Shown: positions 1 through 28,935, counted from the stretch's first letter. The stretch is DNA of 32,000 nt from Candidatus Pelagibacter ubique HTCC1062 (GCF_000012345.1 NC_007205.1:810001-842000); one strand, 5' to 3'. Numbers and translations are program-made. Notes: generated from the sequence alone by a model not told the origin.

Positions 1-600
1 ATGAATTGATGTACCTAAAAATAAACCAACAAACATTGGTTCAGCATCAAAGTAATAATTAGCAAAATAAGGATATATAAGCATCGATAAAATTCCAAAC
101 AAAGTGATGTTAGCAATTGCATATGATACTTCATTTTTTTTTGCACCAATTACTGGAGCAGTTGCCATAATTGCTGTTGTCCCACAAACTGTGCTACCAA
201 TAGATATTAAGTAAGCCATTCTTGTTGGGATTTTAAGTTTTTTAATTAACAGTTTTATAACTATTAGTACTGTTACAATACAAATTATAATTAAAGGTAT
301 AGCCACAGCTCCAAATTCTAAAAACTCAAAAGGTTTTAATTGAATTCCTAAACAAATTATTCCAAGTTTGAGAATATATGATTGAGTAAAGTCCAAACCC
401 TTTACAAAGTTATCTCTTATTTTGAATATATTTCCAAAAAGCATTCCAAGTAAAATAGCAATCATGGCTGTCGATATTGGACTTTTATCGTAACCTAATA
501 ATTCAATACCAATAATATTATTAAATCCTTGAGATAAACTGTAGAGAACAAACGCTAAAACAATACCTGGCAAAATGACCAGATATTTTTTAAATAACAT
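1..600 (-). CDS. YeiH/UPF0324 (PSE family) putative sulfate/sulfite exporter, N-terminal 200 codons; gene continues beyond the left edge
   Basis: Absent from the ORF track because it has no stop inside the window. My reverse-complement translation from ATG 600..598 gives MLFKKYLVILPGIVLAFVLYSLSQGFNNIIGIELLGYDKSPISTAMIAILLGMLFGNIFK... and stays open to base 1 (...FLGTSIH). It is polytopic and hydrophobic. The SPxxxAMIAILLGMLFGN stretch matches my memory of YeiH-type proteins. Family call is from memory, not a search. Confidence 0.65.
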   Translation of the reverse strand, partial: MLFKKYLVILPGIVLAFVLYSLSQGFNNIIGIELLGYDKSPISTAMIAILLGMLFGNIFKIRDNFVKGLDFTQSYILKLGIICLGIQLKPFEFLEFGAVAIPLIIICIVTVLIVIKLLIKKLKIPTRMAYLISIGSTVCGTTAIMATAPVIGAKKNEVSYAIANITLFGILSMLIYPYFANYYFDAEPMFVGLFLGTSIH

Positions 601-618
601 TACTTTATAGATAAATTT

Positions 619-1797
619 TTAAGCACTTCTGTAAAGTTTAGTCATAACAAACTCTTTATGACCTAAAGCTTCAGCACAAGTTAATCTACCGTTAGCAACT
701 CTAATCATTGATTTGATTAATTCGTCACCAGCTTGTGATAAATTCATTTCACGAGATAGAATTTTCGATACATCACAATCAATATGCTCACCCATACCTT
801 TTACAGTTAATGGGTTGGCAGTTAACTTAACAACAGGTTCAATTGGATTACCTACGATATTACCTTGACCTGTTGGGAATAAATGAATGTTAAATCCAGC
901 AGCTGCTTGAAGTGTAATACACTCTGCTGCAGCAGATGAAGTATCCATAAAGTATAATCCTTTTCCTTTAGTAGGCTCTTCAGCTGGTTCTAAAACATCA
1001 ATAAACTTACAATTTCCAATTTTTTGGAAATTACCAAATGCTTTTTCTTCAATTGTAGTTAATCCACCTGCAATATTTCCCGCAGTTGGTTGACTTTCAG
1101 AAAGATCATCTGTTGCTTCTTTTAAAATAAAGTCGTTGTAATCGCTCCAAGTTTTCATGAATTTTTCTGAAGCTTCTGGAGTGGCACCACGTGTAGCACA
1201 AACTTTTTCAGCACCAGTTAATTCTGAGGTTTCACCAAAACATAAATGAACTCCTAATGGCTCTAATTTATCCATTAAGTTTCCAACTGTTGGGTTAGCA
1301 GCAAGACCTGATGTTGTATCAGATTCACCACATTTAACTGAAATCCATAAATCGCTTAAAGGACATTCTTCTCTTTGTTTTTCAGAAGCCCACATTGCAA
1401 ATTCTTGTGCTTTTTTAGAAGCCTTCATGATTGTTCCAATATCACCAGTTCTTTCAATGTGAAATCCTTCAACTGGTTTTCCAGTTTTAGCAATTTCATC
1501 AACAATTCTTTTTGTCCATTTAGGTTCAATTCCAATAACAATTACAGCAGCAACGTTAGGATTTTTCCCAGTCCCAATCATTGTTCTAAAGTGTAGATCT
1601 AAATCAGCACCAAATTGAAGTCTTCCGTAAGAGTGAGGAAGAGCTATTGTACCTTTAATATTATTTGCTACAGCTTCAGCACAAGCATTTGATATATCAT
1701 CTACAGGTAAGATGATTACGTGATTTCTAGTACCAACTCTGCCATTTTCTCTTTTATAACCTAAAAAACTTTTTGGAATTTCCATATTTTTTACCAC
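619..1797 (-). CDS. suyB: UxaA-family dehydratase/lyase large subunit, probably (2R)-sulfolactate sulfo-lyase beta subunit (SuyB-like)
   Basis: 392-aa [24 protein letters not shown]... and the overall length match the catalytic C-terminal part of altronate-dehydratase (UxaA) family enzymes. It follows a separate 94-aa SAF-domain ORF, the two-subunit layout described for SuyAB, and its neighbours are xsc and a PSE-type exporter. The track start at 1797 is GTG and overlaps suyA by 7 nt. ATG at 1785 (MEIPKSF...), 5 nt after the suyA stop, is an equally good start. Confidence 0.6.
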
Positions 1798-2075
1798 TTC
1801 TTCGTTTTTACATTGTGAACGTGAACATGTTCACCTTTTTTGATTGATTTAACTACTTTTCCAATATCGTGACCATATTTCAAAATAGTATCACCTTCAT
1901 TAAGGTCAACCATTGCAATTTTATGTCCTAATTGAATTTCATCTACTGATTGAATTTGAACTGTTTTATCATTCTCCATAATCCAACATGCGCAATCTTG
2001 TTTTGGAGTAATTTTATCAATAACAACTACTCCTACGTTGTCTTTCTCGTCGTGTATAATAATATCTGTAGCCAT
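1791..2075 (-). CDS. suyA: SAF-domain small subunit of a UxaA-family enzyme, probably sulfolactate sulfo-lyase alpha subunit (SuyA-like)
   Basis: 94 aa. DNVGVVV...[43 protein letters not shown] is the classic SAF/UxaA N-terminal pattern (DNVava ... GHKiAl ... G..v.kYG..IG.a...I..GehVH.HN). It is a stand-alone small ORF directly upstream of the large subunit. Confidence 0.6.
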
Positions 2076-2186
2076 AATTGTGTCGATTTGTTTGTTTGAA
2101 ATTTTTTAAATCTTATATATTAATCTTTAAAATTAACAAATTATTTATAGATTTTTTAACAACTTAAGCAGGAAGGCCTAATTATT
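2076..2186. promoter_or_regulatory. Divergent suyA / xsc control region with Shine-Dalgarno candidate for xsc
   Basis: 111-nt AT-rich spacer between divergent start codons, one of only six spacers over 100 nt here, so it should hold both promoters. AGGAAGG at 2170..2176 lies 10 nt upstream of the xsc ATG. No -35/-10 hexamers are called because such matches are uninformative at this AT content. Confidence 0.5.
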
Positions 2187-3971
2187 ATGACTAAAATGAC
2201 AACAGAAGAAGCTTTTGTAAAAGTTTTACAAATGCATGGAATTGAACACGCATTCGGAATTATCGGTTCAGCTTTTATGCCTATTTCAGATATCTTTCCT
2301 GATGCTGGAATTACCTTTTGGGATGTTGCTCATGAAACAAACGGTGGATTAATTGCTGATGGTTACACAAGATCTACTGGCAAAATGTCAATGGTTATTG
2401 CTCAAAACGGTCCTGGAATTACCGGTCTTGTAACACCAATTAAAACTGCATACTGGAACCACACACCATTATTATTAGTAACACCTCAAGCTGCCAATAA
2501 AACTATGGGTCAAGGTGGCTTTCAAGAAGTAGAACAAATGAATTTATTTAAAGATATGGTTTGCTATCAAGAAGAAGTTAGAGACCCTTCAAGAATGGCA
2601 GAAGTATTAAATAGAGTAATTGAAAAAGCGATCAGAGGATCAGCTCCAGCACAAATAAATGTTCCAAGAGATTATTGGACACAAGTAATTGATATAGATC
2701 TTCCTCCAATTGTTAGACTTGAAAGGCAAGCAGGTGGAGTTGATGCAATTAAAAAAGCAGCTGACTTATTATCAAACGCTAAGTTTCCAGTAATACTATC
2801 TGGTGCAGGTGTTGTTATTGGTGGGGCAATTGAAGATTGTAAAAAATTAGCTGAGAAATTAGATGCTCCAGTTTGTTCAGGGTATCAACATAATGATAGT
2901 TTTCCAGGAAGTCACCCATTAGCAGCTGGACCTTTAGGCTATAATGGATCAAAAGCTGGAATGGAATTAATTAAGAAAGCTGATGTTGTTCTTGCACTTG
3001 GTACAAGATTAAATCCTTTCTCAACTTTACCAGGTTATGGAATGGATTACTGGCCTAAAGATGCAAGTATCATTCAAGTTGATATGAATTCAGATAGAAT
3101 TGGTTTAACTAAAAAAGTCACAGTTGGTATTTGTGGGGATGCAAAATTAGTATCACAACAAATTTTAGCTCAACTTTCTCCAACAGCAGGAGATACAAAT
3201 AGAGAAGAGAGAAAAAATACAATTCACCAAACTAAATCTGCTTGGTTACAAGAGTTATCAAGTTTAGATCACGAAGATGATGATGAAGGTACAGTTTGGA
3301 ATGCAGAAGCAAGAAAAAGAGATGCAGATAGAATGTCTCCTAGAGAAGCATGGAGAGCAATTCAAGCAGGTATGCCTGATGATGTAATTATCTCAAGTGA
3401 TATTGGTAATAACTGTGCAATTGGAAATGCTTATCCAACATTTGAAAAAGGTAGAAAATATTTAGCACCAGGATTATTTGGTCCTTGTGGTTATGGTTTT
3501 CCAGCAATTCTTGGAGCAAAAATTGGATGTCCTGATACACCAGTAATTGGTTTTGCAGGTGACGGTGCATTTGGTATTAGCATGAACGAAATGAGCTCAT
3601 GTGCTAGATCAGAATGGCCAGCAATTTCAATGGTAATCTTTAGAAATTACCAATGGGGTGCTGAAAAAAGAAATACTACTTTATGGTTTGATGATAACTT
3701 CGTTGGAACAGAGCTTGATCCAGAATTAAGTTATGCAAAAGTTGCTGATGCTTGTGGATTAAAAGGGGTTACTGTTCGAACCATGGAAGAGACTACTGCT
3801 GCTATCAAGCAATCATGTGAAGATCAAAAGAAAGGGATTACAACATTTATTGAAGTAATTCTTAACCAAGAACTGGGAGAGCCTTTCAGAAGAGATGCTA
3901 TGAAAAGACCAGTTAAAGTTGCAGGGATCAAAAAAGAAGACATGATCAAGCAACCTTCGCTAGTTTCATAA
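2187..3971 (+). CDS. xsc: Sulfoacetaldehyde acetyltransferase (ThDP-dependent, EC 2.3.3.15)
   Basis: 594 aa. The N-terminus MTKMTTEEAFVKVLQMHGIEHAFGIIGSAFMP... closely matches the characteristic Xsc N-terminus as I remember it. The ThDP motif GDGAFGISMNEMSS...NYQWGAEK is present. Length is typical for Xsc (about 590-600 aa). No small regulatory subunit follows, as would be expected for acetolactate synthase. Confidence 0.85.
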   Translation: MTKMTTEEAFVKVLQMHGIEHAFGIIGSAFMPISDIFPDAGITFWDVAHETNGGLIADGYTRSTGKMSMVIAQNGPGITGLVTPIKTAYWNHTPLLLVTPQAANKTMGQGGFQEVEQMNLFKDMVCYQEEVRDPSRMAEVLNRVIEKAIRGSAPAQINVPRDYWTQVIDIDLPPIVRLERQAGGVDAIKKAADLLSNAKFPVILSGAGVVIGGAIEDCKKLAEKLDAPVCSGYQHNDSFPGSHPLAAGPLGYNGSKAGMELIKKADVVLALGTRLNPFSTLPGYGMDYWPKDASIIQVDMNSDRIGLTKKVTVGICGDAKLVSQQILAQLSPTAGDTNREERKNTIHQTKSAWLQELSSLDHEDDDEGTVWNAEARKRDADRMSPREAWRAIQAGMPDDVIISSDIGNNCAIGNAYPTFEKGRKYLAPGLFGPCGYGFPAILGAKIGCPDTPVIGFAGDGAFGISMNEMSSCARSEWPAISMVIFRNYQWGAEKRNTTLWFDDNFVGTELDPELSYAKVADACGLKGVTVRTMEETTAAIKQSCEDQKKGITTFIEVILNQELGEPFRRDAMKRPVKVAGIKKEDMIKQPSLVS

Positions 3972-4010
3972 ATTGTTTTAATATCAAATAAAATACCATA
4001 ATATTCTATT

Positions 4011-5612
4011 ATGGTTAGTTATGATGCTATAATAATTGGTGCAGGCTTTTCAGGTATTTATCAATTACATAGCTTAAGAGATAAATTAAAACTTAACACT
4101 CTAGTAATTGAGTCAGGTAAGGACTTAGGTGGTACTTGGTATTGGAATAGATATCCAGGGGCCAGATGTGACTCAGAAAGTCATACTTACAACTTTACAT
4201 TTTCAAAAGAGATATTTGAAAATTGGTCATGGCCAGAAAGATATTCAAAGCAAGACATCATATTAGAATATTTAAATTATGTTGTTGAAAAATTAAGTTT
4301 AAAAAAAGATATGCTTTTTGATAATAAAGTTATTAAAGCACATTTCGATGAAAAAAGTAATTTATGGAACATCAAAACCAATAAAGACAAAACTTTTTTA
4401 TGCAAATATTTAATTAGTGCTGTTGGCTGTTTATCAGCAGCAAACATTCCAAAAATAAATGGTTTAAGAAAATTTAAAGGTAAATGGTACCATACAGGAA
4501 AATGGCCTCATACTGGTGTAGATTTTAAAAATAAAAGAGTTGCACAAATTGGTGTTGGTTCTACTGGAATACAGTTGGCACCCGAGATAGCTAAATCAGC
4601 AAAGAAGCTTTCAATTTTTCAGAGATCACCAAATTTTAGTATTCCAGCAAGAAATGAAATTGTTAATGATAAATATAAGAAAAAGATAAAAGATAATTAT
4701 CAAGAAATTAGAGATTTAATTAAGTCAACACCAACTGGTCACGCTTTTCATTTTTCAAGTCAGTCCACTTTTGATGTCAGTAATGAAGATAGAAAAAAAA
4801 TTTATGAAAACGGGTGGCAAAAGGGTGGGTTGGGTTTTCGCGGTCTTTTTAAAGATATAACAACAAATTTGGATGCTAATAAAACAATTGTTAATTTTAT
4901 TAAAGAAAAGGTAGAGACAACAATGCTAAATAAACATTATGCTAAAGTTGTGACAGATTTTAAATATCCATTTGCAACTAGAAGACCAACTTTAAATACT
5001 GATTATTATGAAACTTTTAATAAAGATAATGTCGAATTAATTGATATCTCGAAAGACTCAATAAAAGAAATTACTGAAACTGGAATCAGCACCATAGAAA
5101 ATAACTATGAATTTGATATAATTGTATTTGCAACAGGGTATGACGCTATTACAGGTGCACTATTATCAATTGATATGGTGGGTAAAAATAATATCAAACT
5201 AAGTGAATTATGGAAAAATGGTCCATTAACTTATTTAGGTCTACAGATACCTGGATTTCCTAATTTTTTTACCATTACCGGACCTGGAAGTCCCTCAGTA
5301 TTAACAAATGTTCCAATGGCTATAGAGCAACATGTCGAGTTTATAACTGATTGTATTTCACATATGGAAAAAAATAAATATTCAACAATTGAAACTAATA
5401 ATGATTACTCTTTAAAGTGGAGAGGGGTAATTGATAAAGCTGTAGAAGAAACATTAATACCAGAGTCTAAAAGCTCATGGTTGTATGGCGGTAATATTGA
5501 AGGAAAACCCAAAGTTTTTATGCCTTACCCATCTGGACTTCCAAAGTATAAAAAGATTTGTGAAGACATTGTTTTAAAAAACTATGAAGGTTTTAATTTT
5601 GATAAGCATTAA
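4011..5612 (+). CDS. Type I Baeyer-Villiger monooxygenase (cyclohexanone/acetone monooxygenase-like, FAD + NADPH)
   Basis: 533 aa. Has an N-terminal GAGFSG Rossmann motif, the GGTWYWNRYPGARCDSES block typical of CHMO/PAMO-type BVMOs, an exact BVMO fingerprint FxGxxxHxxxWP (FKGKWYHTGKWP), and a second dinucleotide motif GVGSTG. Confidence 0.85.
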   Translation: MVSYDAIIIGAGFSGIYQLHSLRDKLKLNTLVIESGKDLGGTWYWNRYPGARCDSESHTYNFTFSKEIFENWSWPERYSKQDIILEYLNYVVEKLSLKKDMLFDNKVIKAHFDEKSNLWNIKTNKDKTFLCKYLISAVGCLSAANIPKINGLRKFKGKWYHTGKWPHTGVDFKNKRVAQIGVGSTGIQLAPEIAKSAKKLSIFQRSPNFSIPARNEIVNDKYKKKIKDNYQEIRDLIKSTPTGHAFHFSSQSTFDVSNEDRKKIYENGWQKGGLGFRGLFKDITTNLDANKTIVNFIKEKVETTMLNKHYAKVVTDFKYPFATRRPTLNTDYYETFNKDNVELIDISKDSIKEITETGISTIENNYEFDIIVFATGYDAITGALLSIDMVGKNNIKLSELWKNGPLTYLGLQIPGFPNFFTITGPGSPSVLTNVPMAIEQHVEFITDCISHMEKNKYSTIETNNDYSLKWRGVIDKAVEETLIPESKSSWLYGGNIEGKPKVFMPYPSGLPKYKKICEDIVLKNYEGFNFDKH

Positions 5613-5627
5613 AATTATTTAATAATT

Positions 5628-6377
5628 ATGAATAAAATTGATTTAAAAAATAAAATTGCAGTAGTAACTGGAGGAGCTCAAGGTTTTGGATTGGCTATTT
5701 CAAAACGCTTTATAGAATCTGGTGCAACTGTTGTAATTTGGGATATAGATTCAATAGCTACTAAAGACGCAATAAAAATTATAAATTCAAAGAAATGTTA
5801 TGCTTTTCCAATTGATATAACAAATTATAAAAAAGTTAAAGAAGGCATCAAACAAGTTTTAAAGATTTGTAATAAGATAGATATTTTTGTTAACAACGCT
5901 GGATACCATGGGATAAATGCAAATACATGGGATTACCCAATTGATGAATGGGAAAAGATTTTAAAAATTAATTTAACAGCAACATACTACTGCTGTAAGG
6001 CTGTTGTTCCTCACATGATTAAAAATAATTATGGAAGAATTGTTAACATTTCATCAAATGCTGGAAAAGAAGGAAACCCAACTGCAGCATGTTACAGTTC
6101 TGCTAAAGCTGGAACTATCGCTTTAACTAAATCTTTAGGAAAAGAATTAGCTGATAAAAATATTTCTGTTAATTGTGTTACACCTGCAGCTGCAAAAACA
6201 AGAATTTTTGATGAAATGGAACCTGAATTTATAGACTATATGCTTTCAAAAATTCCTAGAAAAAGATTTGCTAAAGTTGAAGAGTTAGCCTCTTTAGTTT
6301 CCTGGCTTTCTAGTGAAGAAAATTCTTTTGCTACTGGTGCCGTTTATGATCTTACGGGCGGAAGAGCAACATACTAA
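5628..6377 (+). CDS. Short-chain dehydrogenase/reductase (SDR), copy 1 of a paralogous pair
   Basis: 249 aa with TGGAQGFG cofactor motif, NNAG, and catalytic YSSAK (YxxxK). It is 15 nt downstream of the BVMO stop. About 58% identical (my hand alignment) to the SDR at 28936..29682. Confidence 0.85.
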   Translation: MNKIDLKNKIAVVTGGAQGFGLAISKRFIESGATVVIWDIDSIATKDAIKIINSKKCYAFPIDITNYKKVKEGIKQVLKICNKIDIFVNNAGYHGINANTWDYPIDEWEKILKINLTATYYCCKAVVPHMIKNNYGRIVNISSNAGKEGNPTAACYSSAKAGTIALTKSLGKELADKNISVNCVTPAAAKTRIFDEMEPEFIDYMLSKIPRKRFAKVEELASLVSWLSSEENSFATGAVYDLTGGRATY

Positions 6378-6381
6378 AAAT

Positions 6382-7686
6382 ATGAGGATAGTAAACGACT
6401 TAGGCTGTAGCTGGATTAGTGACCTTGATAGAAGATCTAATATAAAAAATTTAGATAAAGATAAATCTTGTGACTGGTTAATAGTAGGTGCTGGTTATAC
6501 AGGTTTGTCTGCTGCTAGAAAATTATCAGAACTTCATCCAGATCAAAAAATTATTGTTGTAGATGCCCAATTAGCAGGTGAGGGTGCAAGTGGAAGGAAC
6601 TCTGGTTATTTAGTTGATACTACACTTAATGATGGTTTCACGTCTAACAAAGAACTTTCTAAATATAGAAAGAAAACAGACATTTATAAATTGGGAATTG
6701 ATGTTGTAAAAAAGTTTATTAAAGAACATCAGGTAGATTGTGATTGGAATGAAAGTGGAAAATATTTTGCCTCATCAAATCAAAAAGATAGAAAGATATT
6801 AGAAAATTTTAGTAAAACTTTGTCAAAATTAAACTTCGGACATAATATTTTAGAAAAAGATGATTTAAGTAAAAGATTAGGTACAAATTTTTATAACCTT
6901 GCCCTTTATACCAAAGGTGGAGTGTTATTGCATCCGGGAAAATTAGTCAGAGCTATGATTGATACCTTACCTGATAATGTTGAGTTGCTTGAGAATTCTC
7001 AGCTAAATGAATGGGCAAAAAATACTGATAGAATTATTTGTAAATTTAATAAGCATCAAATAATTACTAAAAAGATTATTTTTTGTACTAATGGTTTTTT
7101 AAAATCACTTGGTGTAAAAAAAAATTATAATTTTCCCTTAACTTTAACTGCAAGCATGACAAGACCATTAACTGATAGAGAATTTAAGTCTATTGGTGAG
7201 CCTAGAGAGTGGGGTGTGCTACCTATTAGACCAATGGGCGCAACCATTAGAATGACAAAAGATAAAAGAATTTTAATTAGAAACACTGCTGAAGTTCATA
7301 GTCCTTTTAAAATGTCTAAAACAGAGTTGGATGAAAGATCTTTAACTCAAAAACTTGGAATAAAAAAAAGATTTCCAAGTTTAGCAGATAATATTATTGA
7401 ATCTAGTTGGTCTGGGGTTGTATCTAGAACTAGAAATAGTTCACAAATTTTTGAAAAAGTAGAAGACAATGTTTTTGTGGCAGGCTGCTATAACGGTTCT
7501 GGTATTGGAGTTGGAACTTTATTTGGTGAACAGATAGCAATTAAAGCAAGTAATGAAAATAGTGATGAAATTAATATAATAGAATCTAGAACTAAACCTA
7601 CTTGGCTTCCACCTCAGCCTTTTTTAAATATTGGGGTTAAAACAAGATTGATGTTTGAGAGGTTTAGATCTCGATCTGATGTGTAG
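6382..7686 (+). CDS. FAD-dependent (DAO-family) amine oxidoreductase, PuuB/gamma-glutamylputrescine-oxidase-like
   Basis: DWLIVGAGYTGLSAARKLSE...VVDAQLAGEGASGRNSGYL matches the PuuB-type N-terminus (VIGAGYTGLS...GASGRNGG). I place the start at ATG 6382 (MRIVNDL...), 4 nt after the SDR stop. The track start at 6313 would overlap the SDR by 65 nt. Confidence 0.7.
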   Translation: MRIVNDLGCSWISDLDRRSNIKNLDKDKSCDWLIVGAGYTGLSAARKLSELHPDQKIIVVDAQLAGEGASGRNSGYLVDTTLNDGFTSNKELSKYRKKTDIYKLGIDVVKKFIKEHQVDCDWNESGKYFASSNQKDRKILENFSKTLSKLNFGHNILEKDDLSKRLGTNFYNLALYTKGGVLLHPGKLVRAMIDTLPDNVELLENSQLNEWAKNTDRIICKFNKHQIITKKIIFCTNGFLKSLGVKKNYNFPLTLTASMTRPLTDREFKSIGEPREWGVLPIRPMGATIRMTKDKRILIRNTAEVHSPFKMSKTELDERSLTQKLGIKKRFPSLADNIIESSWSGVVSRTRNSSQIFEKVEDNVFVAGCYNGSGIGVGTLFGEQIAIKASNENSDEINIIESRTKPTWLPPQPFLNIGVKTRLMFERFRSRSDV

Positions 7687-10224
7687 TTATTGATTTCTTA
7701 TAAGTGGATAAACTTTAGGGCTTAAATACTTAAAATTAGTAATCATAATTAAGATTAATGTTGCAAGCCCAATTCCAATAGTTACCTGTAAAAATATTGC
7801 TAAATCAAACTTCCAAGTGATTTGAAAAATATTTTCAATGATAAATTGTGAACCTATGATCGCAAAAAAGAGAGCTATTAGAATTATGGATGTGAATATT
7901 ATAAAAAACTCAATAATTGAAGAAAGTATAACCTCAACTTTGGAAAAACCTAAAATTTTGAATATTAAATTTTGAAATTCTTTAATTTTACCCTGAACTA
8001 TAATTGCACTTGAAATGACAATTAAACCAATGACTATAGTTATTGCAGAGATAACGGTTACAGCAATAAACACTTTGTTTAAAAGATCTGTTACTTTCTC
8101 CAAGTAATCAGTAATTTTTATAATAGAAAGACTAGGCATTTTATCTAGTAAAGCAGTTTCGTTAAAATTCTCTAAACTTTTAAACTTTGAAGTAGCCAAA
8201 TATTCGTGAGGTATATTTTTTGCAAATTGAGGATTTAATAACATTGCAAAGTTAATAGAAAAATCTCTGTAGTCTACTAATCTAAAATTTACTATTTCAC
8301 CTTCAATTTCACGTCCATAAATATTAAGAGTAAAAATATCACCAATTTTAATATCAAAATCTTTAGCAATTTTACTATCAAGTGAAATTTGAAGTTTATC
8401 AGGTCTATCTAGATCCCACCATTTGCCTTCTACAATTGGGTTATCTTTTAAAACTTTATCAGCCCAAGAAGACCTTCTGTCATTTCTGATCACCCAGTGG
8501 CTATCATTACTTGAATCGATATAAGTATTTGGATCTATTCCATTTATTTTTACAATACCTGTTGAAACCATTGGAACAATTTCAAGGTTAGCTTCTTTAT
8601 CCATGTCAAAAATTAAATCTTCAAATATTTGTCTTTCATCACTTTGAATACCAATGAAAAAATAATCAGGCGCAAGTTCTGGTATAGATTTAGCAATTTC
8701 TCTTTTAAAATTTGAACCTACAAAAGCTAAAGTTAATAGTAAAGTGACCCCCAAACCTAAAGACATAATAGTTATAGGGGTAATACTTTTAGTTTGAGTA
8801 ATATTTTTAACTGATACTTTAATTGAAATATTTGGATGCTCTTTAAGTCCTTTAAACAATTTAATGATTAAGTTTGATAATAAGTAGAAGACTAATAAAC
8901 AAACAAAGAAAGCTCCAAAATAACCCAAACTATAAACAGGTCGAGCAGAACCGATGGTAAATAAAGAAATTAAAATTGATAATAGTAACAGACTTAAAAG
9001 AATTGATTTTTTTGAATAATAAAATTGAAGGTTTTGAAATACATTTCTAAATAAGTTTGATGCCTTAACTTGATCAATTGCATTAATGGTTGGTATAGAA
9101 AATATGATTAATACTAATAACCCTACTAAAAAAACTTTGAAATAATTAAGAATAGAAAAACTACCTTCAATATTTAATCCAAGACCAGCTGACAGATAAA
9201 CATCAACAATAGGGACTAGAAAGAAACTAAAAGAGTAGGCGGCAGTTGATATTATGAATAGTAGAATGAGCAATTGTAAATAGTAGACTATCTTTATATC
9301 CTTTGAGAAAAAGCCTAAAGACTTCTTAACTGCAATAGACATATTATTCTGATTAATGAATGAAAGTAGAGTGTTAGCAATTCCAATTCCTGCAATTAAC
9401 ATTGCACTGATTGATACAAGAGATAAGAATTGAGAGAAATTATCAATTATTCTCTTTAAAGGACCGTCAGATTTTTCGTGATATCTAATTCTAACCTTCT
9501 TTTCATTTTTGAATAACTGCTCAATTTTTTTAGATAAAGTATTTGGATTATCTCCCTCATTAAATTTTACTTTATACTCATAATTTAAAAAGCTCCCTAG
9601 ATTATTAAGTTTTAATAATTCTAATGTTTGTTTGCCAGCTAAAGCAAAATCACCAAATACAAAAGCACCCCCAATATCAGGTACTGATTTTACGATACCA
9701 ATTACAGTAAATAACTGATCTTGAACTTTGATTTTATCATTAATTTTTAAATTGAGATTTTTGAAAATGTTTTCATTAACAAGGATTGTATTCTCTATAG
9801 TTTGTAATTTTTCAAATGCACCACTTGGTTCATAACCTACCTTGCCAAATAATGGGTAATTTTGATCTACTGTTTTAATTCTAGAAAATATTGATTTATT
9901 TTTAGATTGGTTGGTAGTTGAGATCATGGTGCTAAACTCAACCATTTGTGAAACAGTAGCAAATTCTTTAACTTGGTTAATTAATTCTAAGTTGCCAACA
10001 TTACGATTATAGTCAATTTCAATATCTCCACCTAAAAGTGCTCTTGAATTATTATTTAATTCTTTATTCAAACTATCTTCAATGGTGAAAATTGAACTTA
10101 AAATAAATAGGCTGATAAAAAGTGTTAGAATAATACTAGAAATTTTTTTATAATTTCTACTCAAGTCTCTTAAGGCATATATCAAAGTTAACTTGTACTC
10201 TGAAAGCTTAGACAATTTTTCCAT
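7687..10224 (-). CDS. ybbP: ABC exporter permease with two FtsX-type domains (YbbP-like)
   Basis: About 845 aa and polytopic, with large extracytoplasmic loops, immediately downstream of a MacB/LolD-type ATPase as in E. coli ybbA-ybbP. Likely start is ATG 10224 (MEKLSKLSEY...), overlapping the ATPase gene by 17 nt. The track start at 10272 would overlap it by 65 nt. Confidence 0.75.
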   Translation of the reverse strand: MEKLSKLSEYKLTLIYALRDLSRNYKKISSIILTLFISLFILSSIFTIEDSLNKELNNNSRALLGGDIEIDYNRNVGNLELINQVKEFATVSQMVEFSTMISTTNQSKNKSIFSRIKTVDQNYPLFGKVGYEPSGAFEKLQTIENTILVNENIFKNLNLKINDKIKVQDQLFTVIGIVKSVPDIGGAFVFGDFALAGKQTLELLKLNNLGSFLNYEYKVKFNEGDNPNTLSKKIEQLFKNEKKVRIRYHEKSDGPLKRIIDNFSQFLSLVSISAMLIAGIGIANTLLSFINQNNMSIAVKKSLGFFSKDIKIVYYLQLLILLFIISTAAYSFSFFLVPIVDVYLSAGLGLNIEGSFSILNYFKVFLVGLLVLIIFSIPTINAIDQVKASNLFRNVFQNLQFYYSKKSILLSLLLLSILISLFTIGSARPVYSLGYFGAFFVCLLVFYLLSNLIIKLFKGLKEHPNISIKVSVKNITQTKSITPITIMSLGLGVTLLLTLAFVGSNFKREIAKSIPELAPDYFFIGIQSDERQIFEDLIFDMDKEANLEIVPMVSTGIVKINGIDPNTYIDSSNDSHWVIRNDRRSSWADKVLKDNPIVEGKWWDLDRPDKLQISLDSKIAKDFDIKIGDIFTLNIYGREIEGEIVNFRLVDYRDFSINFAMLLNPQFAKNIPHEYLATSKFKSLENFNETALLDKMPSLSIIKITDYLEKVTDLLNKVFIAVTVISAITIVIGLIVISSAIIVQGKIKEFQNLIFKILGFSKVEVILSSIIEFFIIFTSIILIALFFAIIGSQFIIENIFQITWKFDLAIFLQVTIGIGLATLILIMITNFKYLSPKVYPLIRNQ

Positions 10225-10873
10225 CTTTGATTTTAATTTTTCTTTTTGCTTTATTTGCAAGTTTTGGGTCATGGGTGACCATAATTAAAGATGATTTTTC
10301 TTCTTTAATATATTTGAATAAAATATCTGCAATCATTTGTGAATTTTCACTATCTAAATTTCCCGTAGGTTCATCTGCCAAAATTAGCTTAGGTTTCATG
10401 GCTATAGCTCTAGCAATTGCTACACGTTGTTGTTCACCACCTGAAAGTTGACTAGGTAAATTATTAAATCTATTTTTTAGTCCAAATCGATCCAACAACT
10501 CTTTGGCTCGTTCAGTAGGGTTTTTTAAATTATTTAACTCTAAGGTTAGAGCAACATTTTCAACAGCAGTATAATTTGGAATAAGATAGAAAGATTGAAA
10601 AACAATACCAATATTTTTTCTTCTAATTTTAGAAACTTCATCTTCACTCATTTTAGATATTTCTTGATCTTCAAAAAATATCTTACCAGAGGTTGCTTTC
10701 TCTAGTCCCCCAGCAAGCATGATTAAGCTAGTTTTTCCAGATCCACTTTCACCCACTATTGAAATAGACTCATTTTTTTTAGTTTCTAAATTAATATTCT
10801 TTAAAACCTTAATAGTATCATTACCAGTTTGGTATTTAAGATTAACGTTTTTTAGCTTAAGAAGACTATCCAT
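10208..10873 (-). CDS. ybbA: ABC transporter ATP-binding protein (YbbA/LolD-like)
   Basis: Walker A GESGSGKTS, signature LSGGEQQRVAIARA and Walker B LILADEPT are all present. Likely start is ATG 10873 (MDSLLKLKNVNLKY...). The upstream 19 codons in the track ORF run into the tesA-like gene. Confidence 0.85.
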   Translation of the reverse strand: MDSLLKLKNVNLKYQTGNDTIKVLKNINLETKKNESISIVGESGSGKTSLIMLAGGLEKATSGKIFFEDQEISKMSEDEVSKIRRKNIGIVFQSFYLIPNYTAVENVALTLELNNLKNPTERAKELLDRFGLKNRFNNLPSQLSGGEQQRVAIARAIAMKPKLILADEPTGNLDSENSQMIADILFKYIKEEKSSLIMVTHDPKLANKAKRKIKIKDGKIV

Positions 10874-11486
10874 GATTAAAAGATTTATTATTAAAATTAT
10901 TGCCGTCTGTCTAGTGAGCATAAACGTCAATGCTCTAGAAAACGTTATCTTATTTGGTGATAGCTTAATGGCAGGCTATGGTCTTCCACAGGAAAAACAT
11001 TTAGCCATTGTCCTTCAAAATAACCTTAATGATAGTGGTTATGATCTTGGAATTATTGATGGAAGTGTATCTGGAAGCACATCTGCTGGAGGATTAAATC
11101 GAGTTGAATGGTCTTTATCTCAACCGAATATTGACTTAATGATCTTAGGATTGGGTGCTAATGACATGTTAAGAGGAATAAGCCCAATCGAGACTGAAAA
11201 AAATTTAGAAAAAATTATTCAAACAGCAAAATTAAAAAATATAGAAATAATTTTAGCAGGAATGATTGCACCAACAACTCATGGAATTAGTTATAAAAAA
11301 AAATTTGATAATATTTATCCAAGTTTAGCTCAAAAATATGAGTTAAATTTAATTCCTTTTTTATTAGAGGGAGTTGCTTTAAAACCTGAACTTAATCAAG
11401 AAGACGGTATGCACCCAAATGAAAAAGGAACTATAATTATAAGTGATACACTTACAAAAAGTATCATCAATTTTATAAAAAAATAG
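10872..11486 (+). CDS. tesA: Secreted SGNH/GDSL hydrolase (thioesterase I / arylesterase / lysophospholipase L1, TesA-like)
   Basis: Signal peptide MIKRFIIKIIAVCLVSINVNA, then SGNH blocks GDSLMAGYG, GANDMLRG and DGMHPN. It is divergent from ybbA, as in E. coli. Start placed at ATG 10872; the track ORF start at 10719 lies antisense inside ybbA. Confidence 0.8.
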   Translation: MIKRFIIKIIAVCLVSINVNALENVILFGDSLMAGYGLPQEKHLAIVLQNNLNDSGYDLGIIDGSVSGSTSAGGLNRVEWSLSQPNIDLMILGLGANDMLRGISPIETEKNLEKIIQTAKLKNIEIILAGMIAPTTHGISYKKKFDNIYPSLAQKYELNLIPFLLEGVALKPELNQEDGMHPNEKGTIIISDTLTKSIINFIKK

Positions 11487-11500
11487 TATATCGTGATAAA

Positions 11501-12793
11501 ATGTTTTTAAATACTAAACTACAATCCAGAAAAAAACCGATAAAAGTTGCATTCATTGGCTGTGGAAAATTTGTAAGCATGTTTCTTGCTCAATACAATC
11601 AATTACAAAAAATTACTATTGATACTATCGTTGATATTAATATTGATAACGCCAAAAAAAACTGTCTTAAGAGCGGTTTAACTACAGAGACAGTTAATAA
11701 AATAAATTTTGTAACTACTTTAGATGAGGCAATTGATAGAGATGTTGAAGTTTTTATAGAAGCCACTGGAAATCCAATTATAGGAACAGTTCATGCTGTA
11801 AAGATTATTAAAAACAAAAAACACATCATATTAGTAAATGTTGAAGCTGATGTTACTTGTGGGAAATACCTTGCTGATCTTGCAAAAGAAAACAATGTTA
11901 TTTGTTCAATGGCATATGGTGATCAACCTTCATTAATTATGGAACAGATTGAATGGGCTAAGTTAAACGGTTTTTTTGTAGTTTGTGCAGGAAAAGGAAC
12001 GAAGTACCACCCAGATTTTGAATATTCAACACCAGACACGGTTTGGGGTCACTACGGTTTAAGTAAAGAACGTGCTGAAATTGAATCTGGTATGAATCCT
12101 AAAATGTTTAATAGTTTTTTATGTGGAGATAAATCTGCAATTGAAATGTGTGCAGTCAGTAATGCATCAGATTTAAAATGTCCAAGTAATGGATTAACTT
12201 TTCCACCTGTTGGGGTTTATGACATTGCTAAAAAATTAATTCCAAAAGTGGAAGGAGGATTAATTGATTATGAAGGTCAAGTAGAGGTGATATCTAGCAT
12301 TGATTTAAATCAAAAAGATATTCCAAATGATCTTAGATGGGGTGTTTACATAGTAATTAAAGCTCAAAATCAATATGTCAAAAATTGCTTTAAAGATTAT
12401 GGAATGGTGACCGATTTGTCTGGCAGTTATTCAGCTATATGGAGGCCATATCATTATATTGGTTTAGAACTTGCTCAATCGATATATGCAATTGCACTTG
12501 ATCAAAAAGCAACAGGTCAAACTATAAATTATAATGCAGATGTTGCAGCTTATGCTAAAAAAGATTTAAAAATTGGTGAGCGATTAGACGGTGAGGGTGG
12601 TTTTTGTGCTAGAGGGAAATTAATTACTTCTAAAAAATCAAAAGATGAAAAAATTTTACCTCTTGGTTTAACTGATGGAGCAATTGTTAAGAAAGATATT
12701 AATAAAGATCAATCTATAAGATTAGATGATGTGGAGTTAGATCTTCCAGAAGATGTTGTTAAAGCTAGACAGTATCAATATGATTTAATTTAA
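11501..12793 (+). CDS. NAD(P)-binding oxidoreductase with C-terminal SAF domain (COG4091, homoserine-dehydrogenase-like)
   Basis: 430 aa with an N-terminal Rossmann motif KVAFIGCGKF. The C-terminal KDLKIGERLDGEGGFCARGKLIT resembles a SAF domain. Family assignment is from memory of COG4091 architecture. Confidence 0.55.
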   Translation: MFLNTKLQSRKKPIKVAFIGCGKFVSMFLAQYNQLQKITIDTIVDINIDNAKKNCLKSGLTTETVNKINFVTTLDEAIDRDVEVFIEATGNPIIGTVHAVKIIKNKKHIILVNVEADVTCGKYLADLAKENNVICSMAYGDQPSLIMEQIEWAKLNGFFVVCAGKGTKYHPDFEYSTPDTVWGHYGLSKERAEIESGMNPKMFNSFLCGDKSAIEMCAVSNASDLKCPSNGLTFPPVGVYDIAKKLIPKVEGGLIDYEGQVEVISSIDLNQKDIPNDLRWGVYIVIKAQNQYVKNCFKDYGMVTDLSGSYSAIWRPYHYIGLELAQSIYAIALDQKATGQTINYNADVAAYAKKDLKIGERLDGEGGFCARGKLITSKKSKDEKILPLGLTDGAIVKKDINKDQSIRLDDVELDLPEDVVKARQYQYDLI

Positions 12794-16380: not shown

Positions 16381-16971
16381 TTAAATAAATAACTTTAAAT
16401 CAGTATAAATTAATTCGATAGCAACAACCAGTATAGCAATTAAACCAATCCAGGCTATCCATTTATATTCATTAATCCATCTTGATATTACAGTAGCAGC
16501 TGTTGCCATAAGAATTATTGATAAAGCTAAACCAAATATTAATAATACATAGTGATCACCAGCAGCACCAGCTACACCTAATACATTATCCAAACTCATC
16601 GTAAAATCAGCAAGTAAAACTGTCCATATAGCCTTCATAAAGCTTGAATTATCTACTTTAATATCTTCATCACCTGACTGACCTTTGATTACATCTGTAT
16701 AGAGTTTGTAGACTATATAAAGAAGAAGCAATCCTCCTATTAATCTTAATCCTGTTATTTGTAATAAATAAGCAGTTAACATGGTTAAGATAATTCTTAA
16801 AATTACTGCACCACCTATCCCCCAAAAAATTACTTTTTTTCTTTGTTCGGGTGGAAATTTAGAGGCAACCATTCCAATAATAATGGCATTATCACCAGCT
16901 AATACTAAATCGATAAATATAATTTGGCCTAAAATTATAAGTTGTTCAGGCCCGAATAATTCTGCAAACAT
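16381..16971 (-). CDS. TerC/YjbE-family integral membrane protein
   Basis: 196 aa and polytopic, with the duplicated TerC motif (LAGDNAIIIG and SLDNVLGVAGAAGD). The ATG shares one base with the GMC oxidoreductase stop (TGATG). Confidence 0.7.
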   Translation of the reverse strand: MFAELFGPEQLIILGQIIFIDLVLAGDNAIIIGMVASKFPPEQRKKVIFWGIGGAVILRIILTMLTAYLLQITGLRLIGGLLLLYIVYKLYTDVIKGQSGDEDIKVDNSSFMKAIWTVLLADFTMSLDNVLGVAGAAGDHYVLLIFGLALSIILMATAATVISRWINEYKWIAWIGLIAILVVAIELIYTDLKLFI

Positions 16972-18566
16972 CAGCTGCTTAGTATCATATCAGCACCTTT
17001 TTCTGCAATCATTATTGTGGGTGCGTTAGTGTTTCCAGAGGTGATATTGGGCATTATTGATGCATCTATTACTCTTAAATTTTTAATTCCATGAACTTTT
17101 AGCTGATCATCAACAACGGCCATATCATCTTGACCCATTTTACATGTTCCAACAGGATGAAAAATAGTTTGAGCATAATCTGCTGCTGCTTTTAAAATAT
17201 CTTCATCTTCTGTTAAATGAATTCCAGGTCGGTATTCTTCTGGGCTAAATTTTTTAAATGTCTCAGATTCTAAAACAATTTTTCTTGTTAATTTAAGACC
17301 AGCTGCTGCAATTTTTCTATCTTCATCTGTCGACAAATAATTCATTTTTATTTTTGCGTAAGTTCGTGAGTCTTTATCTGTTATACTAATATGACCTCTA
17401 CTAGTTGGTCTAATTTGTGAAACTGTTGGAGTAAAACCATGAAAATCATGGTTTTTGGTAGCTCCCAATGTATCCATACTCATTGGCTGAACATGCCATT
17501 GTAAATCAGGCAGCTCTAATGAAGGATCACTTTTTGCAAACATACACATTTGACTTGCACCCATAGTCATGGGCCCACTTCTATTAAAGATATATTCCAA
17601 TCCAATTAACAAGTTACCAAATAAACTATTAATTTTTTTATTAAGAGATTTTATATTTTGTATTTTATATATTGGTCTAAACATTAAATGGTCTTGTAAA
17701 TTTTCACCTACACCCTTTAATTCATGCACCATTTCAATTCCTAGTTCCTTTAATTTATCTGAATTTCCAACTCCAGATACTTGTAATAATTGTGGAGAAC
17801 CTATTGCTCCTGAAGATAAGACAATTTCTTTATTTGCACTTACAGTGAATATTTCATTTTCAATCCAATACTCAACTTCTTTAGCAACTTTGTTTTCAAA
17901 ATTAATCTTTTTAACATGAGCTTTTGTAACTATTTTTAAATTAGGTCTTTTCTTAGCTGGGTTTAAATAACCAACAGCAGTACTACATCTAAAGCCATCC
18001 TTTTCTGTTACTTGAAAATAACCACAGCCATGATTGTCTCCTGTATTAAAATCTTTAGTTTTTGGAATTCCAAATTCCTCAGCCGCTTTTTGAAACTGAT
18101 TTAATAAAGGCAATTGTATTCGTTGGTCAGAAACAGACAAAGGACCTCCTACACCATGAAATTCACTTTCTCCTCGTTCTTGATTTTCAGCTTTGATGAA
18201 ATAAGGTAATACATCTTCCCAACTCCAGCCTTTATTTCCTAGCTGCCTCCAAACATCGTAGTCTCTGTGTTGACCCCTAACATAAAGTAGACCATTTATT
18301 GATGAGCTACCTCCAAGAGTTTTTCCTCTAGGATACCTTATGGACCTATTGTTCATAGTTTCATCCGGTTCTGTATTATAACACCAATCAACATTGGGGT
18401 TATGCATAGTTTTGAAATATCCTACTGGTATATGAATCCATGGGTAATTATCTTTACCACCAGCCTCAATTAAAAGGACTTTGTTTTTTGGATTTTCAGA
18501 TAATCTATTTGCTAAAACACAACCTGCTGATCCAGCTCCAATAATAATGTAGTCAAAATTATCCAT
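16971..18566 (-). CDS. GMC-family FAD oxidoreductase (choline/alcohol dehydrogenase-like)
   Basis: 531 aa. Has FDYIIIGAGSAGCVLANRLSE, GKTLGGSSSINGLLYVRG, and C-terminal HPVGTCKMG ... NTNAPTIMIAEK, all GMC signatures. Confidence 0.85.
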   Translation of the reverse strand: MDNFDYIIIGAGSAGCVLANRLSENPKNKVLLIEAGGKDNYPWIHIPVGYFKTMHNPNVDWCYNTEPDETMNNRSIRYPRGKTLGGSSSINGLLYVRGQHRDYDVWRQLGNKGWSWEDVLPYFIKAENQERGESEFHGVGGPLSVSDQRIQLPLLNQFQKAAEEFGIPKTKDFNTGDNHGCGYFQVTEKDGFRCSTAVGYLNPAKKRPNLKIVTKAHVKKINFENKVAKEVEYWIENEIFTVSANKEIVLSSGAIGSPQLLQVSGVGNSDKLKELGIEMVHELKGVGENLQDHLMFRPIYKIQNIKSLNKKINSLFGNLLIGLEYIFNRSGPMTMGASQMCMFAKSDPSLELPDLQWHVQPMSMDTLGATKNHDFHGFTPTVSQIRPTSRGHISITDKDSRTYAKIKMNYLSTDEDRKIAAAGLKLTRKIVLESETFKKFSPEEYRPGIHLTEDEDILKAAADYAQTIFHPVGTCKMGQDDMAVVDDQLKVHGIKNLRVIDASIMPNITSGNTNAPTIMIAEKGADMILSS

Positions 18567-19825: not shown

Positions 19826-19949
19826 GGTATGTTTAATATACTAGTTTAGTTTTAATACCAAAAAAATTTTATATTTAATAATTCTTTTGATTAATATTTT
19901 AAAAAGTAATAACTTAATTAAAATTAAAAATTTTTATAACAGGATTTCA
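19826..19949. promoter_or_regulatory. Divergent control region between the HxlR-family gene and the SDR-ALDH-HIBADH operon
   Basis: 124-nt spacer between divergent starts. An imperfect 36-bp palindrome TGGTAT-N24-ATACCA (19825..19860, centre ACTAGT) begins at the regulator's start codon. AGGA at 19941..19944 lies upstream of the SDR ATG. Confidence 0.45.
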
Positions 19950-20726
19950 ATGAAACTAAAAGATAGAATAGCAATAGTCACAGGTGGTGGAAAAGGAATT
20001 GGTGCAGAGATTTGTGTAAGACTAGCAAGTGAGGGAGCAAAAATTGTTATAGCTGAAATGGATATTGAAAATGGTGAAAAAATTTCTAAAAAAATTCAAG
20101 GTAATAATGGTGAAGCAATTGTTGTAGAAACAAATGTTGCCGAAGAAGATAGTGCAAATAACATGGCTGATGTTGCTATTAAAAAATTTGGTAAGATTGA
20201 TATTCTTGTTAATAATGCTGGTATAAGACATATTAACAATATTCTAGATCATACAAAACAGCAATGGGATGACATGATATCGGTAAACTTAACCGGACCA
20301 TATCTATGCTGTAAGTCTGTTATTCCTCATATGATAAAAAATGGTAAAGGAAAAATTATTAATTTTGGATCTATTGCAAGTTTTATGGGTAGACCTGATA
20401 GAGTAGCCTATGTTGCTGCAAAATCTGGTATACTAGGTTTAACGAGAGCCTTAGCGGTCGATTTAACTGGGAAAAATATTAACGTAAATACTATTTGTCC
20501 TGGGTTAATTTCAACACCTTTCAATCAAAAATTTGCTGAAGATCCTACTCACGGTAAAGCTTGGGGCAAAGAAACTATAGTTGGACGTTGGGGTTTGCCA
20601 TCTGATATATCTGGTGCAGCTGTTTTTCTATCTAGCGATGATGCAGATTTTATAAATGGATCTGAAATAAAAATTGATGGTGGATGGTTAGCAGCAAAAA
20701 CTAGAAAAGGTGAAATAAGTAATTAA
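19950..20726 (+). CDS. Short-chain dehydrogenase/reductase (SDR)
   Basis: TGGGKGIG, NNAG, YVAAKSG (YxxxK) and a C-terminal IKIDGGW are present. Start set at ATG 19950 (MKLKDRIAIVTGG); the track uses TTG 19887. Confidence 0.85.
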   Translation: MKLKDRIAIVTGGGKGIGAEICVRLASEGAKIVIAEMDIENGEKISKKIQGNNGEAIVVETNVAEEDSANNMADVAIKKFGKIDILVNNAGIRHINNILDHTKQQWDDMISVNLTGPYLCCKSVIPHMIKNGKGKIINFGSIASFMGRPDRVAYVAAKSGILGLTRALAVDLTGKNINVNTICPGLISTPFNQKFAEDPTHGKAWGKETIVGRWGLPSDISGAAVFLSSDDADFINGSEIKIDGGWLAAKTRKGEISN

Positions 20727-23165: not shown

Positions 23166-23342
23166 AAACAATATTTGTAAATTTACTTAACAGTATTAAA
23201 AGTATACCAAACAATTCAATTGATTGTAGTATATTATAGGTTGTATCGTCTGTATTTAACTTATTTTAAGTTTACTTTTCTCCTACAATAATGTTTATTT
23301 CAAATTTATTAAGACTAAATAAAAAAACAGAGAGGGATAAAC
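23166..23342 (+). promoter_or_regulatory. Long leader/promoter region upstream of the TRAP binding-protein gene, with Shine-Dalgarno candidate
   Basis: 177-nt spacer, the second longest in the window. Purine-rich AGAGAGGGA lies at about 23329..23337, 5-6 nt upstream of ATG 23343. No structured-RNA motif was recognised by eye. Confidence 0.4.
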
Positions 23343-24434: not shown

Positions 24435-24446
24435 ATAAATAATTTA

Positions 24447-24482: not shown

Positions 24483-24522
24483 AAAATAGAAAAAATTTTA
24501 ATCGACATTACCAATCAATAAA

Positions 24523-28931: not shown

Positions 28932-28935
28932 TTTC

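Follow-up and report, generated by a model that had tools for sequence, protein, structure and literature searches.

An optional Baeyer-Villiger monooxygenase and short-chain dehydrogenase in a variable gene slot between xsc and a flavoprotein gene of SAR11

Introduction

The window analysed here is a stretch of 32,000 nucleotides from the SAR11 bacterium Candidatus Pelagibacter ubique HTCC1062 (GCF_000012345.1, NC_007205.1:810001-842000). Close to its 5' end, four genes follow each other on one strand: xsc, a gene for a Baeyer-Villiger monooxygenase (BVMO), a gene for a short-chain dehydrogenase/reductase (SDR) and a gene for a DAO-family FAD oxidoreductase (called DAO below). Xsc is the thiamine diphosphate (ThDP)-dependent enzyme that splits sulfoacetaldehyde, with phosphate, into acetyl phosphate and sulfite. 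A reading made from the sequence alone had taken the BVMO, the SDR and the DAO, labelled PuuB-like, for an undescribed route feeding sulfoacetaldehyde. Does the gene order reflect a pathway? Had a BVMO belonged to a sulfonate cluster, this would have been new chemistry. The outcome is largely deflationary: both the BVMO and the SDR are probably optional cargo of a flexible island and not members of a sulfonate pathway, the locus being a composite.

The xsc/DAO Junction

A metagenome scan with the DAO protein recovered 80 SAR11 loci with DAO proteins 81-98% identical, 73 of them informative for the junction and 7 uninformative. In 34 of the 73, xsc directly precedes the DAO gene with a spacer of 39 nt (42 nt in L088). 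Another 34 hold other cargo: 17 could be read back to xsc and have 1-6 kb inserted, and the other 17 do not reach xsc. The BVMO occupies the slot in five loci, four of which have a remnant of the SDR. The fifth, L038, has an intact SDR, so the order xsc-BVMO-SDR-DAO is met in one of the 73 loci, and this only other instance is essentially identical in sequence to the window itself. Outside the lineage, no synteny was found for the BVMO and the SDR, an outcome that the sequence-only reading had itself named as one that would refute it. The proposed three-enzyme route is not borne out by this distribution. Two loci (L039 and L053) even have an Xsc 100% identical to that of the window, yet no BVMO or SDR.

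The BVMO-bearing loci differ among themselves. L002 and L003 have suyBA, then xsc, the BVMO, the SDR remnant and the DAO gene. L001 has two further genes between xsc and the BVMO, one for an SxtJ-like membrane protein of 129 aa and one for a carbamoyltransferase of 612 aa. The BVMO of L032, a TARA contig, is 88% identical to that of the window; a carbamoyltransferase, another gene and a degenerate xsc 3' end lie 5' of it, and the SDR remnant and then the DAO gene lie 3' of it.

The BVMO and the SDR are regarded as flexible-island cargo because the slot is elsewhere empty or filled with unrelated genes, and because BVMOs occur elsewhere without xsc. Between an xsc that is 93-100% identical across the SAR11 loci and a DAO gene conserved as given above, the slot can be empty, hold the BVMO with or without the SDR, or hold members of at least 10 other cargo families. 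Alleles with an empty slot have, in front of the DAO gene, a spacer similar to the one preceding the BVMO. The proposed picture is that of a stable core, made of suyAB divergent from xsc and the DAO gene 3' of xsc, with a junction that would serve as a small flexible-gene slot, about half of the time empty and about half of the time carrying assorted cargo, mostly of predicted glycan- or envelope-modifying function. A small minority of SAR11, including the window, would carry the BVMO in this slot, and the window would be an allele still having an intact SDR.

The commonest cargo is the pair of the SxtJ-like 129-aa membrane protein and the 612-aa NodU/CmcH-type carbamoyltransferase (25 loci; for example, L001 7597..9977, L086 5610..7992 and L032 1..1863). 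Counted singly, the carbamoyltransferase is present in 25 loci and the SxtJ-like protein in 17. The pair is often joined by variable genes for GDSL-like, methyltransferase, Wzy_C or AT3-SGNH proteins, and it resembles the SxtI/SxtJ association of saxitoxin clusters. Further cargo includes a Wzy_C O-antigen ligase, FkbM and other methyltransferases, an AT3-SGNH acyltransferase and GDSL-like proteins.

In L032 (1891..1963, before the BVMO) and in L094 (5653..5751, before the DAO gene), the last 24-33 codons of xsc recur in degenerate form directly 5' of the spacer. Both copies sit beyond the inserted cargo, and the L094 contig also has an intact xsc end. These copies suggest that cargo is exchanged by recombination at the xsc 3' end; recombination between conserved flanks would then be the mechanism. 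No integrase was found among the annotated cargo families, and no repeats were found flanking the BVMO and SDR cassette in the window. In L058 (1..640), an inverted xsc 3' end, the 39-nt spacer and a BVMO N-terminus (75% identical) are joined to xsc at about codon 516, and a normal xsc end and the DAO gene follow the inverted piece; the arrangement may be a true inversion or may have arisen by chimeric metagenome assembly.

The slot is comparable to the hypervariable regions (HVRs) and gene indels described for SAR11 (Wilhelm et al. 2007, PMC2217521), which also have conserved flanks, strain-variable cargo including genes for cell-surface modification, and no evident integrase. It differs in size, with 0-8 kb against 48 kb for HVR2, and in lying between metabolic genes and not rRNA genes. 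It is apparently not one of the four named SAR11 HVRs (PMC2217521). Being a compact and delimited gene-content polymorphism, the junction is a possible marker for the strain-level ecology of SAR11, and it could inform how streamlined genomes exchange accessory genes.

The Baeyer-Villiger Monooxygenase

The identification of a textbook type I BVMO holds: the FxGxxxHxxxWP fingerprint is present as FKGKWYHTGKWP at aa 155-166 (4473..4508), and the second fingerprint, [AG]GxWxxxx[FY]P[GM]xxxD, as GGTWYWNRYPGARCD at aa 40-54 (4128..4172). Two Rossmann GxGxxG motifs are found, GAGFSG (aa 10) and GVGSTG (aa 181). The best match in the PDB is phenylacetone monooxygenase (PAMO, 1w4x; E=1e-155, 522 bits over residues 4-528), of which the equivalents of the catalytic Asp66 (RCD) and Arg337 (F-x-T-[KR]-R) are kept. 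Judged by these motifs, the protein is a catalytically complete type I BVMO, predicted to convert a ketone to an ester using NADPH and O2.

This BVMO is rare. Among 5.8 billion proteins, only three 90% clusters reach 73% identity or more with the window protein. The genome scan, made with very specific peptide patterns, gave three close Pelagibacter genomes and 27 more-distant loci. The BVMOs of the three complete Pelagibacter genomes (L001, L002 and L003) are 94-96% identical to that of the window; the 27 others are at 41-54% identity and come mostly from soil and freshwater metagenome-assembled genomes.

Within SAR11, the window-type BVMO family is seen in three different contexts. Besides the xsc/DAO slot, there is a 73%-identical BVMO (L031) that has a GSDH-family gene on one side and an unrelated gene on the other; neither xsc nor the DAO gene is present there. 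A 58%-identical one (L037) stands behind a PhyH gene, between genes for a GMC oxidoreductase and an FKBP-rhodanese protein. The L037 contig also has an xsc 98% identical to that of the window, followed after 39 nt by the DAO orthologue (80%), and in the window the GMC and FKBP-rhodanese genes meet without an insert, at 18566/18637. The PhyH-family dioxygenase and BVMO genes of L037 (9106..11468) thereby mark a second, independent insertion site of a BVMO, about 11 kb from the first. Within flanks of up to 10 kb per side, no homologue of xsc, DAO or SDR was found near the BVMO relatives at 54-57% (L033, L035 and L036), nor near the 27 at 41-54%.

HTCC1062 metabolises acetone, and a SAR11 BVMO termed acetone/cyclohexanone monooxygenase is the proposed enzyme (Moore et al. 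2021, PMC9300024). That protein, SAR11_0845, is likewise a SAR11 type I BVMO, patchy among subclades and proposed for acetone and other ketones (PMC9300024); the window BVMO is its counterpart and may be the same gene, as the numbering in PMC2217521 (0845 for the BVMO, 0852 for a 'homoserine dehydrogenase'-like gene) roughly agrees with the gene order of the window, by which xsc would be SAR11_0844. In the Sargasso Sea data, SAR11_0845, annotated as a steroid monooxygenase, was never on syntenic fragments (Wilhelm et al. 2007, PMC2217521, Table 3). The SAR11_0845 papers do not discuss its neighbours, an SDR or a variable slot. The alternative given along with the sequence-only reading, namely that this is the SAR11 acetone or ketone BVMO and that its position reflects genome architecture, is the favoured one, in a refined form: the architecture is a polymorphic cargo slot and not mere compaction. 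The SAR11 acetone monooxygenase would then be a rare, mobile accessory trait and not a core function.

The Short-Chain Dehydrogenase/Reductase

The SDR has the motifs of its family, TGGAQGFG (aa 14; TGxxxGxG), NNAG (aa 89) and YSSAK (aa 156; YxxxK), and matches Pfam adh_short at 6e-54. Its best PDB match is 6D9Y, considered a putative L-2-keto-3-deoxyrhamnonate (L-KDR) 4-dehydrogenase (PMC11199699); 9JVE and 9KQ1 are also close. Relatives at 68-73% identity are common in Pelagibacteraceae, where they lie in a TctCBA-SDR-FAA-hydrolase cluster (for example, L127). Such a cluster is typical of deoxy-sugar-acid catabolism, and the anion there would be a carboxylate.

In most relatives that carry the BVMO, the SDR is reduced to an in-frame remnant of 28 codons, MNKIDLKDKVAAVKGAAYDLTSGRARY*, found in L001, L002, L003, L032, L044, L046 and L061. 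The remnant is identical in the three complete Pelagibacter genomes and in the metagenome contigs. Since the gene has decayed in this way, the SDR is considered dispensable. The window has a paralogue at 28936..29682, 58% identical to the cassette SDR; it follows an NCS1-family transporter gene after 4 nt, the two genes spanning 27474..29682.

Where it is intact, the SDR would most plausibly feed the BVMO its ketone by oxidising a secondary alcohol or a hydroxy-acid, and neither enzyme would belong to the sulfoacetaldehyde supply. Known systems of this kind are cyclohexanol dehydrogenase ChnA, an SDR, with cyclohexanone monooxygenase ChnB, in which the dehydrogenase yields the ketone and the BVMO the ester or lactone. 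Acetone monooxygenase AcmA and esterase AcmB of Gordonia are another example (Kotani 2007, as cited in PMC9300024). The window resembles these modules in that an SDR adjoins a type I BVMO, and differs in having no gene for an esterase or lactonase next to them. A further difference is that the window SDR belongs to a 2-keto-3-deoxy-sugar-acid dehydrogenase-like group and is lost in most relatives. By analogy, the pair is most plausibly an alcohol-to-ketone-to-ester module, which matches the acetone/cyclohexanone proposal for SAR11.

Several points weigh against taking the BVMO and the SDR as mere cargo. The cargo genes run in the direction of xsc and have no obvious terminators of their own, so co-expression with xsc, and perhaps functional coupling, is possible. 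The locus sampling was centred on the DAO and the BVMO and not on xsc, and metagenome contigs are short. The roles of BVMO, SDR and DAO are predictions. The acetone role of the SAR11 BVMO draws only on whole-cell acetone use by HTCC1062 and on the 32% identity of SAR11_0845 to Gordonia AcmA (PMC9300024). Finally, the SDR keeps a Lys/Arg pair (K208 and R246) of a type proposed in the 6D9Y family to hold an anionic group and likened to the sulfonate ligands of S-HPCDH (PMC11199699), which would allow a sulfonated hydroxy- or keto-substrate. A carboxylate is the simpler reading of this pair, and the opening for a sulfonate is small. The flexible-gene slot is still the best explanation of the adjacency of BVMO and xsc, which should therefore not be used as a pathway prediction.

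Organization and Transcription Signals of the Four Genes

The coordinates of the four same-strand genes and their three short spacers were reproduced by the open reading frame (ORF) calls (Table 1).

Table 1. Features of the xsc region. Positions are counted from the first nucleotide of the window.
Feature	Position	Strand	Remarks
SuyB-like large subunit (UxaA/GD_AH family), probable (2R)-sulfolactate sulfo-lyase	619..1797	-	Pfam GD_AH_C, GD_AH_second
SuyA-like small subunit	1791..2075	-	N-terminal part of galactarate dehydratase model
suyA/xsc divergent intergenic region	2076..2186		111 nt; likeliest site of the xsc promoter
xsc	2187..3971	+	Core gene
Cargo segment (spacer, BVMO and SDR)	3972..6381	+	Missing from alleles with xsc directly before DAO
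Spacer xsc/BVMO	3972..4010		39 nt
Hairpin at the BVMO start	3995..4015	+	ACCATAATA-TTC-TATTATGGT
Type I BVMO (PAMO-like)	4011..5612	+	Accessory gene
Spacer BVMO/SDR	5613..5627		15 nt
Classical SDR	5628..6377	+	Accessory gene; L-2-keto-3-deoxyrhamnonate-4-dehydrogenase-like group
Spacer SDR/DAO	6378..6381		4 nt
DAO-family FAD oxidoreductase	6382..7686	+	Conserved partner 3' of xsc; SAR11-specific family
YbbP-like ABC permease	7687..10272	-	Convergent with DAO, no gap; closes the co-directional run

Tight spacing is the rule in this DNA. The window is AT-rich (~30% GC) and ~97% coding, as is typical of SAR11. The median gap between its genes is 4 nt, and in 14 of 19 same-strand pairs the gap does not exceed 39 nt; convergent pairs have gaps of -8 to 7 nt, two of the four overlapping. 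Because the median gap is so small, the spacing of the four genes is not beyond chance: it is genome background and uninformative on operon status.

The absence of hairpins between the genes, claimed earlier, stands in part. A scan of the window found no terminator-like site between the four genes; a hairpin nevertheless covers the start codon of the BVMO. It has a perfect, AT-rich 9-bp stem and a 3-nt loop, folds over 71 nt at -12.3 kcal/mol (z = -2.5) and is also kept in L002. As no T-run follows it, it is not terminator-like; it could damp translation of the BVMO.

With nothing terminator-like in between, the BVMO and the SDR are probably transcribed by read-through from the xsc promoter, and the four genes would be co-transcribed. 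The gap between suyA and xsc is among the longer ones of the window, exceeded by six of the 29 gene junctions. The gap contains promoter-like hexamers at 2105..2133 and 2156..2185, which do no more than match the consensus. No Rfam match was found in 1..12000. For the DAO gene, a start at GTG 6313, proposed by the ORF finder and giving a signal-peptide-like extension that overlaps the SDR, was rejected, as the homologues and the direct alleles begin at the ATG that corresponds to 6382.

The DAO Flavoprotein as a Possible Functional Partner of Xsc

The partner that stays with xsc is the DAO gene. SAR11 is a major consumer of taurine, and the sulfoacetaldehyde-forming step of its taurine use could be carried out by this SAR11-specific flavoprotein, which has an amine-oxidase fold and stays linked to xsc. 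In the role of TauXY or Tpa, the DAO would act as a single-subunit FAD-dependent amine dehydrogenase or oxidase: it would form the sulfoacetaldehyde used by Xsc from taurine, N-methyltaurine or a related aminosulfonate. This reading is compatible with a cargo slot and is put forward tentatively, the odds being rather against it.

The linkage is constant. In every SAR11 locus readable to xsc, the DAO gene lies 3' of xsc on the same strand, directly in 35 and behind cargo in the rest. It persists although the other flank varies: 37 loci have the YbbP gene next to the DAO gene, and 34 have another neighbour there. The DAO gene is thus placed between two variable junctions. The YbbP/ABC/GDSL/DRL block is missing or separated from the DAO gene in about 34 loci (L043, L047, L064, L070, L080, L087, L100 and others). 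However, gene order is generally 96% conserved in SAR11 (PMC2217521), so adjacency within this group is weak evidence, and xsc and the DAO gene are often 1-6 kb apart, with unrelated genes inserted, which argues against a need for tight coupling. Near relatives of the DAO at 37-47% identity outside SAR11 (L118-L122), xsc was absent from four of four contexts, and these contexts gave no functional hint; the aminotransferase near L118 presumably resembles BioA in sequence. A functional pair of BVMO and DAO was discarded, their adjacency existing only where the cassette occupies the slot.

The protein matches Pfam DAO at 2e-40 and is far more widespread than the BVMO, with over 120 clusters of at least 82% identity, against three BVMO clusters at the threshold given above. 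Its family counts 202 50%-clusters at E <=1e-30, and the nearest relative outside SAR11 is at 47%. A sequence search of the PDB with the DAO protein alone gave nothing below 1e-5, and profile and Foldseek searches gave generic matches to the glycine/sarcosine-oxidase fold only. The AlphaFold (AF2) model (pLDDT 92) matches glycine oxidase, sarcosine oxidase and the beta subunit of L-proline dehydrogenase with TMq 0.65-0.70. The fold speaks for an amine-oxidising flavoenzyme and is consistent with C-N oxidation; it is silent on the substrate.

The label PuuB-like, given earlier, is right at the superfamily level only. With 25% identity to Escherichia coli PuuB (E=2e-26), the DAO is not a PuuB ortholog, and no puuA-, puuC- or puuD-type neighbour is present among the window genes. 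It is not a TauY ortholog either, having 22% identity (E=2e-19) to the protein in the TauY position of Paracoccus, which itself is nearer to PuuB (32%) than to the window DAO. These distant relationships to PuuB and TauY are in line with amine oxidation. In the Paracoccus/Rhodobacter-type cluster tauKLM-tauXY-xsc-tauZ-pta, xsc also stands beside a same-strand FAD oxidoreductase of the DAO superfamily, and the Xsc proteins are 78-79% identical. There, however, TauY (463 aa) is encoded upstream of xsc together with TauX, a transporter, tauZ and pta. In the window, the flavoprotein gene is downstream of xsc, and TauX, tauZ and pta do not adjoin it. No TauX-like small subunit is encoded beside the DAO gene at the window or the direct-allele locus, and there is no room for one, with 4 nt (window) or 39 nt (direct alleles) upstream and a convergent gene at 0 nt downstream. 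This lack of a TauX-like partner counts against a role like that of TauXY.

A precedent for such an enzyme is given by the flavoenzymes PbfB, PbfC and PbfD (Zangelmi et al. 2023, PMC10590968). These DAO-family (PF01266) proteins stand beside a step that cleaves a C-X bond, with conversion of an aminoethyl-X compound to the X-acetaldehyde: PbfC and PbfD make phosphonoacetaldehyde from (N-methyl-)2-aminoethylphosphonate. They are 20-31% identical to the compared enzymes of known function, with 23-31% to PuuB (PMC10590968). Their substrates, unlike those considered here, are phosphonates, and they failed to oxidise taurine (PMC10590968). Among the weak best NCBIfam matches of the DAO is the related model TIGR03329, 'putative aminophosphonate oxidoreductase', on which it scores 108 against a cutoff of 633 bits. 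The taurine route of SAR11 has been described as not yet elucidated (bioRxiv 10.1101/2024.12.10.627767), which leaves a place for the DAO; the same source reports tpa/toa transaminase genes in SAR11, which would fill it. A literature search on N-methyltaurine dehydrogenase genes and on HTCC1062 taurine enzymology gave nothing useful.

A wider version is a little more doubtful still: the DAO would be the missing TauX-independent oxidiser of taurine, or of an N-alkylated or related aminosulfonate, in SAR11, and the slot a previously undescribed micro-island that swaps accessory genes, including the BVMO. If the DAO does oxidise an aminosulfonate, it would be the sulfonate counterpart of PbfC and PbfD in the ocean's most abundant heterotroph. 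On the present evidence, there is nothing categorically new at the locus, and the linkage of xsc and the DAO gene is a modest lead.

Improbable Sulfonate Roles for the BVMO and the SDR

A sulfonate role restricted to the BVMO and the SDR is very improbable. Here, a hydroxyalkanesulfonate would, for example, be the substrate of the SDR, and the BVMO would insert an oxygen beside the ketone, as an optional add-on that in some strains widens the range of sulfonates reaching Xsc or SuyAB. The cassette does sit in a sulfonate gene neighbourhood, strain-variable accessory genes often extend substrate range, and the K208/R246 pair belongs to a group paralleled with the sulfonate-binding HPCDH enzymes (PMC11199699). 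Against this, the closest SDR relatives lie in the TctCBA cluster described above, where a carboxylate is the likely anion; the BVMO persists without the SDR, the slot carries unrelated cargo, and no genes for an esterase or for sulfoacetate activation are present. In addition, we know of no precedent for a keto-sulfonate role of such a pair.

The full route in which BVMO, SDR and DAO together produce sulfoacetaldehyde for Xsc is the least credible of all: its shared strand, short spacers and freedom from terminator-like sites, its sulfonate context given by suyAB upstream and the anion-binding Lys/Arg pair of its SDR are outweighed by a four-gene order kept in one of 73 loci, by the decay of the SDR in eight of nine other BVMO-bearing loci, by the many xsc-DAO loci without a BVMO, the BVMOs without xsc and the unrelated cargo in the slot, and by a spacing that is background.

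xsc and Its Sulfonate Context

The xsc gene itself is well identified. It scores 961.6 bits on TIGR03457 (cutoff 676.4) and 1035 bits on NF005713 (cutoff 620), and its product has the Pfam domains TPP_enzyme_N, M and C and the GDG...N ThDP motif at aa 458. It is 78-80% identical to the annotated xsc of Azospirillum, Sinorhizobium and Paracoccus, which lie in taurine and isethionate clusters; this identity supports the assignment as a sulfoacetaldehyde acetyltransferase and the predicted catalysis.

The SuyB-like protein is 65-70% identical to the products of UxaA-family genes of Paracoccus and Sinorhizobium. Its gene is retained with xsc in every locus long enough to reach its position, and SuyA is invariably paired with SuyB in related loci. 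Both suyAB and xsc are core or near-core in Pelagibacteraceae (PMC12636525). With suyAB divergent upstream and core together with xsc, the neighbourhood is sulfonate-related on the xsc side.

The earlier statement that the usual suppliers of sulfoacetaldehyde are absent is not fully secure in view of suyAB upstream and of a GMC oxidoreductase encoded at 16971..18566 on the minus strand. The latter belongs to the choline-dehydrogenase subfamily, barely over the NCBIfam cutoff, and is 44% identical to the GMC protein encoded beside xsc on S. meliloti pSymA, where an IclR-GMC-MFS-xsc cluster forms an isethionate-dehydrogenase-like context. The window protein is a possible IseJ-like supplier of sulfoacetaldehyde.

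Further downstream, at 19887..26507, co-directional genes encode an SDR, an aldehyde dehydrogenase, a 3-hydroxyisobutyrate-dehydrogenase-type enzyme and the TRAP transporter DctPQM; the block is kept in L037. The 3-hydroxyisobutyrate-dehydrogenase-type enzyme is above the TIGR01692 cutoff and also resembles sulfolactaldehyde reductase. The block is possibly a unit for uptake and oxidation of a hydroxy-acid or a C3-sulfonate.

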